Source: Escherichia coli
GTDB taxonomy: Bacteria > Pseudomonadota > Gammaproteobacteria > Enterobacterales > Enterobacteriaceae
Strand: one strand, 5' to 3'
DNA length: 64,000 nucleotides
Assembly: GCF_003334355.1 (NCBI RefSeq)
Contig: NZ_QOWP01000005.1
Below, piece after piece: positions 23,940 to 24,048 of the stretch. A program made the translations under genes and the position numbers. Within the stretch, counting starts at the first letter, position 1. The number at the start of each line of letters is the position of its first letter. The notes beneath the pieces were generated by a model. It did not search any database. It was given only the letters and a program-made list of their open reading frames with translations, and had not been told where the DNA came from.

Positions 23940-24048
23940 TTGCCTGATGCGCTACGCTTATCAGGCCTACACGGAGATTGCAATATATTGAATTTGCAAG
24001 ATTTTGTAGGCCTGAGAAGGTGTTCATGCCGCATCCAACATGAACAAC
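23940..24048. repeat. REP/BIME-like element (about 100 bp), related to copy at 54124-54226
   Basis: tgcctgatgcgctacgcttatcaggcctac...gcaatatattgaatttgca...ttgtaggcc...gccgcatcc; near-identical to the srmB-yfiE intergenic element. Confidence 0.75.

Follow-up and report, generated by a model that had tools for sequence, protein, structure and literature searches.

The window is a stretch of 64,000 nucleotides of Escherichia coli DNA. Compared with NC_000913.3, it contains the two gene pairs yphH(+)/glyA(-) and srmB(+)/yfiE(-), both convergent, as the initial annotation had named them. One composite repetitive extragenic palindromic (REP) element lies between the stop codons of each pair, which is the extragenic 3' position described for BIME-1; the elements are referred to here as copy A (yphH-glyA) and copy B (srmB-yfiE). 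No repeat is annotated at either site in the RefSeq record of MG1655. The window is not K-12 MG1655, although it has an identical gene order and srmB locus; the offset to NC_000913.3 shifts by 18 bp between glyA (~24080) and srmB (~54070). A 100% match was obtained with strains such as 720632 and 203740.

The 29-nt REP GCCTGATGCGCTACGCTTATCAGGCCTAC was located at 23942-23970 and 54126-54154, and the 19-nt central string GCAATATATTGAATTTGCA at 23980-23998 and 54164-54182. Each occurs twice in the 64-kb window when up to 3 mismatches are allowed, and 0 times in 100 shuffles. A third string, GCCGCATCC, is present in both copies, and within the window the three strings occur at these two sites only. 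An offset of 30184 brings the copies into a gapless alignment. From 23940 to 24048 they share 92/109 positions (84.4%), distributed as 30/30 in the y REP, 27/35 in the linker and 28/34 in the second REP. The outer arms are identical at 12/23 and 22/30 positions (52-73%), and the flanks beyond them at 17/50 and 9/50 (18-34%, chance level). Similarity therefore exceeds the short REP core, and the earlier description of composite REP elements with a common central segment was borne out by the alignment and the string matches. The likeness behind the term 'near-identical' also stands, but the term itself is too strong for 84%.

Elements of ~100 bp had been proposed. The sites were correct, but the ends were inconsistent between the copies (109 nt and 103 nt) and the similarity runs further. 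Each unit is ~150 bp (~23920-24069 in copy A, ~54103-54253 in copy B), because the conserved sequence of the family, taken from ~75 two-REP copies, starts at TGAGACTGATGACAAACGCAAAA on the left and ends at AAAGCGCACTTTGTCAGCAATCTGA on the right. On the plus strand the order in each copy is left arm, inverted y-type REP, 35-nt AT-rich L linker, z-type REP, right arm (Table 1). The y REP is on the minus strand, with its plus-strand end reading ...CAGGCCTAC, and the z REP is on the plus strand and starts with GTAGGCC, so that in both copies the GTAG heads point to the linker. The string gccgcatcc, initially taken as a second degenerate REP, is found at both sites, but there is really a full 34-nt z-type REP, GTAGGCCGGATAAGGCGTTCACGCCGCATCCGGC, which is intact in copy B. 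Both the glyA and the srmB site hold one unit and no tandem array.

Table 1. Features of copies A and B and of the adjoining hairpins (positions are those of the window; z, folding z-score).
Copy	Feature	Positions	Strand	Basis
A	GC-rich hairpin AAGGCTTCC-cgaa-GGAAGCCTT between yphH and element	23899..23920	.	fold -14.8 kcal/mol, z -3.7
A	Left arm, truncated, GATGATCATAAACGAAAAAT	23921..23940	+	family consensus TGAGACTGATGACAAACGCAAAA; E. albertii ortholog keeps TCAGACTAAAGACAAACG
A	y-type REP, GTAG head on minus strand toward linker	23941..23970	-	30/30 with copy B; hairpin -13.2 kcal/mol, z -5.0
A	35-nt L linker; IHF-consensus match CAATATATTGAAT at 23981-23993, minus strand ATTCAATATATTG	23971..24005	.	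8/9 consensus positions
A	z-type REP, degraded, 6 substitutions vs MG1655 and copy B	24006..24039	+	alignment, folding
A	Right arm ATGAACAACGAGCACATTGTCAGCAAATCA; ends 9 nt before glyA stop codon 24079-24081	24040..24069	+	alignment, family sequences
B	Left copy of duplicated srmB/yfiE terminator hairpin AATGCCAGGTTTAAGCCTGGTATTA, without T-run after it	54078..54102	.	fold -13.7 kcal/mol
B	Left arm AAAGTGCTGGCAAACGCAAAAC	54103..54124	+	alignment, family sequences
B	y-type REP, GTAG head on minus strand	54125..54154	-	30/30 with copy A
B	35-nt L linker, IHF-consensus match at 54165-54177	54155..54189	.	Rfam ES036 match overlaps, 54147-54189 minus
B	z-type REP, intact, GTAGGCCGGATAAGGCGTTCACGCCGCATCCGGC	54190..54223	+	hairpin -20.9 kcal/mol, z -4.2
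B	Right arm ATGAATAAAGCGCACTTTGTCGACAAGTTA	54224..54253	+	alignment, family sequences
B	Right copy of duplicated terminator hairpin AATGCCGGGTTTAATCCCGACATTA, then original T-run	54254..54278	.	empty alleles with single copy

Both stretches are almost certainly single copies of BIME-1 (RIB/RIP), an already known family that has been on record since the early 1990s. The name RIB (reiterative ihf BIME) is said to come from Boccard and Prentki in 1993, and RIP (repetitive IHF-binding palindromic element) reportedly from Oppenheim et al. in 1993. BIME-1 is defined by y and z1 REPs in inverse orientation, present as a single copy and separated by a long conserved L linker that frequently holds an IHF site (Ton-Hoang 2012, PMC3333891). 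The sequence between the REPs is bound by IHF (Nunvar 2010, PMC2817692), and the elements are ~140 bp and vary in presence or absence among isolates (Chiapello 2005, PMC1187871). Copies A and B share with BIME-1 the inverse y and z REPs, with heads toward a conserved ~35-nt linker that carries a match to the IHF consensus, and likewise the single copy, the ~140-150 bp length, the extragenic location 3' of transcription units and the variable presence among isolates. Nothing material sets them apart from BIME-1; in the glyA copy of the window the z REP is degraded, the left arm is truncated and the right hairpin copy is absent. The second REP is probably of subtype z1, judged by its association with the L linker.

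Three related systems were compared. BIME-2 also has y and z REPs in alternating orientation at extragenic sites, but differs in its short S linkers without an IHF motif and in its tandem arrays of variable copy number (y/z2). BIME-2 elements are strong gyrase sites with gyrase cleavage enrichment. A y-z-y REP cluster at 2272-2402 of the window is BIME-2-like by its REP layout and overlaps a match to Rfam naRNA4 (RF02564; 2275-2346, minus), another Rfam RNA family that models a REP repeat. The second system, IHF-site MITEs such as the Neisseria Correia element, resembles BIME-1 in being short and non-autonomous, with inverted-repeat ends and an internal IHF consensus, and in being co-transcribed at gene ends. 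In Correia elements the terminal inverted repeats are classical and the target duplication is a short TA of fixed length, whereas the duplicated flank of BIME-1 is a whole hairpin of variable length (13-41 nt). The third comprises the REPINs of Pseudomonas, which are hairpin-forming REP doublets, and their RAYT/TnpA-REP enzymes. A REPIN likewise consists of two inverted REPs as one unit, but BIME-1 additionally has outer arms and a long linker that binds protein. In E. coli, TnpA-REP uses REPs with a GTAG head as its substrate (PMC3333891).

The family was followed in other genomes. A 126-nt query from copy A has matches in 5426/5426 complete E. coli genomes; with at most 40 pieces counted per record, the median genome has them at 20 or more places. 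Copies A and B are thus not a special pair but two members of a family found in every one of these 5426 genomes. A scan for the exact L core (20-mer) in one genome per species yielded 86 stretches, and ~75 of the copies, from species representatives of Escherichia and Pseudocitrobacter, have both REPs. The linker is common to many other y/z REP pairs. Matches are mostly from Escherichia (albertii, whittamii, several unnamed species and divergent E. coli) and from Pseudocitrobacter. In the latter (faecalis, vendiensis and a MAG; loci L020-L036 and L079-L082), many copies have the exact L core together with both REPs and both arms. Among the 80 of 86 loci listed, no exact 20-mer L-core match came from Salmonella, Citrobacter or Klebsiella. 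Six L-core matches without REPs look like chance. Five further matches lie on very short or MAG contigs of unrelated taxa (L077, L078, L019, L048 and L045), assigned to Methylobacterium frigidaeris, Alkalicoccobacillus porphyridii, Desulfosporosinus sp. OT, Collinsella and Ruminococcus. L077, L078 and L048 hold a complete Escherichia-type BIME-1, and the matches in L019 and L045 are at the contig edge. These are probably enterobacterial contamination of the assemblies. Tandem y-L-z arrays were seen in Escherichia sp. MOD1-EC7003 (L076 388-982, L075, L070, and L072 13951-14635), one of them with a period of ~115 bp and at least 5 copies. The arrays are atypical, because BIME-1 is described as single-copy.

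The IHF consensus is WATCARNNNNTTR, and the linker, read as ATTCAATATATTG on the minus strand, matches 8 of its 9 specified positions. In 92 y/z pairs from other genomes the linkers are 34-35 nt, and ATTCAATAnATTG, with the same 8/9 match, is kept in 89 of them. When 35-nt windows are drawn at random from this sequence, 3.7% reach an 8/9 match; among AT-rich windows the figure is 11.5%. Taken alone the match is weak, and the argument for a putative IHF site would draw on its conservation and on the published binding. REPs are not discussed in one IHF ChIP-seq paper (PMC3333857).

Presence of the two elements was determined using queries that included the unique flanks. The glyA element was found in 1933/5426 genomes and the srmB element in 2525/5426, and this strain variability is published BIME-1 behaviour. 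Neither element is essential, because strains without either are common. The empty alleles are shorter by 134 bp (glyA) and ~176 bp (srmB). At glyA they read GGAAGCCTTTTTTCAACAG (EC958, ATCC 43889), with the hairpin and TTTTTCAACAGATTAACCG. A T-run follows this hairpin and an A-run, the T-run of the other strand, precedes it, making it a predicted bidirectional intrinsic terminator. The hairpin at 23899-23920 is the terminator stem that the convergent genes yphH and glyA have in common; its T-run gives way to the left arm of the element in the filled allele. At srmB-yfiE the empty allele (O157, L007; UTI 2/0, L006) has a single AATGCCGGGTTTAAGCCCGGCATT followed by TTTTTAT. In the filled allele the 25-nt hairpin flanks the element left and right, with the T-run retained by the right copy alone; the left copy remains foldable through a compensatory pair of changes. 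The yfiE stop codon (54282-54284, minus strand) falls within the T-run of the right hairpin, 3-4 nt from the stem. The empty glyA allele retains 14 nt, TTTTCAACAGATTA (L003, L004), that resemble the right arm at 10-11 of 14-16 positions. It may be a deletion remnant rather than a never-occupied site, the alternative being a chance likeness.

These alleles bear on the reading of the elements as plain bidirectional terminators of the convergent pairs, with no mobile or repeat identity. Their position between convergent genes would fit such a role, as would the folding of the whole unit, which lies far below shuffles on both strands (z -4.4 to -6.6), and 78 REPs have been placed within predicted bidirectional terminators (Harris 2026 preprint). 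However, the element-free alleles at both loci already have a full hairpin and T-run terminator, and in the filled glyA allele the element displaces the T-run and supplies none. A strict terminator scan returned nothing in either region, and the flanking hairpins of the filled alleles fail its T-run rule. The sequence is, moreover, a multi-copy family with sharp ends. The plain terminator reading is accordingly considered improbable.

A second alternative takes the linker as a genuine minus-strand sRNA gene (Rfam RF02751, ES036/CssrF) to which the REPs are incidental. The ES036 match on copy B scored 49.9 bits against a gathering score of 37.6; that on copy A, also on the minus strand, scored 33.9 bits (E = 2.8e-5), below the gathering score. 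Against this, ES036 was founded on a 43-nt RNA-seq fragment without transcription start evidence that was perhaps processed from a longer transcript or 3'UTR (Rau 2015, PMC4676190). In MG1655 the BIME-1 between phr and dtpD (L099 108-150) has an L linker and GTAG head that agree with the Rfam consensus of ES036. That locus was reached from the published ES036 coordinates by assuming a genome-version shift; unshifted, the coordinates fall inside phr, and the match is ~780 bp downstream. Since the ES036 consensus matches the linker of a BIME-1, a hit to it recognises the repeat family, and on this reading the model would pick out every BIME-1 linker. Strict scans found no sigma-70-like promoter or terminator around either copy, such as an independent transcription unit would have, and more than half of E. 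coli genomes lack the elements. A dedicated sRNA gene is therefore very unlikely, and the match should not be annotated as one; at most, fragments of the linker can accumulate as RNA.

Least credible, and given almost no weight, is a specific pair made by recent duplication or gene conversion between the glyA and srmB loci: the gapless alignment, the fully matching y REP and an identical 19-nt linker core speak for it, but the variable linker parts differ (ACGGAGAT vs GTGGCTCA, AGATTTT vs CGATCTT), the arms are only 52-73% identical, the y REP and L core also occur at dozens of unrelated loci, the linker of L077 is identical to the MG1655 glyA linker within different flanks, and each copy has its own orthologs in other Escherichia (L012, L039 and L074 for glyA, L088 for srmB).

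The BIME-1 borders were then compared in 62 copies representing 49 independent loci. The 65 nt at the left junction were aligned locally with the 70 nt at the right junction, and left and right junctions from unrelated loci (mismatched pairs) were used as a control. An exact longest-common-substring test under-detected diverged repeats, and local alignment was used instead. At 24/49 loci the score was above the 99th percentile of the control, and the flanks contained a direct duplication of the local GC-rich terminator hairpin. The srmB/yfiE repeat scored 12.5 against a control 99th percentile of 9.5. Loci with a duplicated hairpin include L013, L015, L025, L026, L032, L034, L050, L056, L065, L080 and L088; the observation also covers L095-L097. 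In nearly all of the duplicated loci, 60-62 nt separate the end of the left repeat from the L core, and 69-72 nt separate the L core from the start of the right repeat; the constant distances indicate a unit with sharp ends. The repeats are 13-41 nt (median 21), and GC-rich hairpins are formed by 22 of 26. The left hairpin copy tends to have an A-run ahead of it, and the right one a T-run behind it. In a filled/empty comparison at tcdA-mltA, AAAGGGTGAGGTTACCCCTCACCCT occurs once in the empty allele and twice in the filled. In MOD1-EC7003 the tcdA-mltA hairpin lies between tandem units, with a 162-bp period equal to unit plus hairpin. The glyA copy has the left hairpin only; the right copy is absent. 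At one locus (L015) the copies of the duplicated hairpin differ in the loop alone, GTAAAC vs GTTTAC, which are reverse complements, as if the loop had been inverted.

The duplication looks like a target duplication of variable length whose extent is set by structure. Over their outer 18 nt the two arms form imperfect inverted repeats (~13/18, read from the consensus by eye). It is tentatively suggested, as one possibility that the present data leave less than even, that BIME-1 is a MITE-like unit of ~150 bp with imperfect inverted-repeat arms, TGAGACTGATGACAAACG (left) and CTTTGTCAGCAATCTGA (right), that inserts at intrinsic terminators and duplicates the whole hairpin. If so, an extruded hairpin or cruciform could have been cut in staggered fashion at both of its feet, or a stalled hairpin could have led to a template switch. 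The evidence supports the duplication pattern and does not yet extend to its mechanism. A reproducible footprint of this kind would be direct evidence on the route of spread, and would bear on how REPs and BIMEs insert in vivo, a mechanism described as not fully established in a 2026 preprint. The footprint is not mentioned in the accessible literature, to which the primary BIME-1 papers of 1993-1999 do not belong, and it may have been described earlier. A review presents REPs as lacking MITE signatures, the TnpA-REP paper does not mention target duplication, and none has been reported in the literature for REPINs or for IS200/IS605 relatives. Re-identification of a repeat family known for ~30 years adds little, and the hairpin duplication is the only part of possible wider import.

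The initial annotation had held that the second palindrome of the copy at 23940 is weakened by decay, and folding agreed. Folded alone, the second REP of copy A reaches -9.5 kcal/mol (z -0.9) and forms no REP hairpin, compared with -20.9 kcal/mol (z -4.2) for copy B. MG1655 has an intact GTAGGCCGGATAAGGCGTTCACGCCGCATCCGGC at the glyA locus, from which the window differs by 6 substitutions in those 34 nt. With 2 changes in the linker and 1 in the right arm, the glyA element of the window differs from that of MG1655 at 9 positions in all (23971-24060). The glyA copies of MG1655 and AF206 have a foldable, largely intact second REP. The degraded allele, searched as a 53-nt segment, is present in 648/5426 complete E. 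coli genomes, at one place in each. Gene conversion was considered as a source of the 6 clustered substitutions and rejected: the degraded segment occurs once per genome in these 648 and nowhere else, and since it is always single there is no donor copy. The glyA orthologs of E. albertii and MOD1-EC7003 have different substitutions of their own in the z REP, with the y REP nearly unchanged, and the z REP at glyA thus appears to be weakly constrained. On these comparisons the degraded second REP is read as a derived, lineage-specific accumulation of point changes. The glyA 3'UTR then exists by lineage with no element, with an intact element or with a degraded-z element, and this matters when glyA expression is compared across strains.

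The 3' REP region of glyA, studied by Plamann and Stauffer in 1985-1990, is reportedly an early case in which 3' structure was tied to mRNA stability. Stabilisation of mRNA, which had been suggested for both elements, has been published for REPs as a class. Gyrase and DNA polymerase I bind REPs, and REP hairpins in a transcript cause partial termination and obstruct 3'-5' exonucleases, depending on context. Convergent pairs that hold a REP show a correlation with higher expression of both genes (Harris 2026 preprint). The same preprint reports no general link between terminal REPs and longer mRNA half-lives, and a stabilising effect is for this reason regarded as context-dependent. Expression of glyA exceeds that of yphH ~90-fold (baseMean 16630 vs 177; supplementary table, Harris 2026 preprint).

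At glyA the insertion would have replaced the terminator T-run, so the glyA transcript most likely crosses the whole element. It would contain, in order, the z REP, L, the y REP and then the hairpin at 23899-23920, and the element would form part of the 3'UTR. The srmB transcript is predicted to pass the T-less hairpin copy and then the element, and to end at the second hairpin with its T-run. Both units may be regarded as 3'UTR passengers that modulate transcript ends, with a possible IHF bend between the converging units. They probably originated as non-autonomous insertions at intrinsic terminators; the units would be gained and lost whole, and tandem arrays of unit plus hairpin occur in other Escherichia.

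Other features of the window were also recorded. A z-type REP with AAAT in place of the GTAG head, AAATGCCGGATAAGGCGTTCACGCCGCATCCGGC, is located at 13601-13634 on the minus strand. Above-threshold Rfam matches were AsrC (46849-47680), rncO (43852-44066), GlmY (31018-31165), the iscRS stability element (1320-1429) and OhsC (40363-40439), all of which are expected for this chromosomal region.
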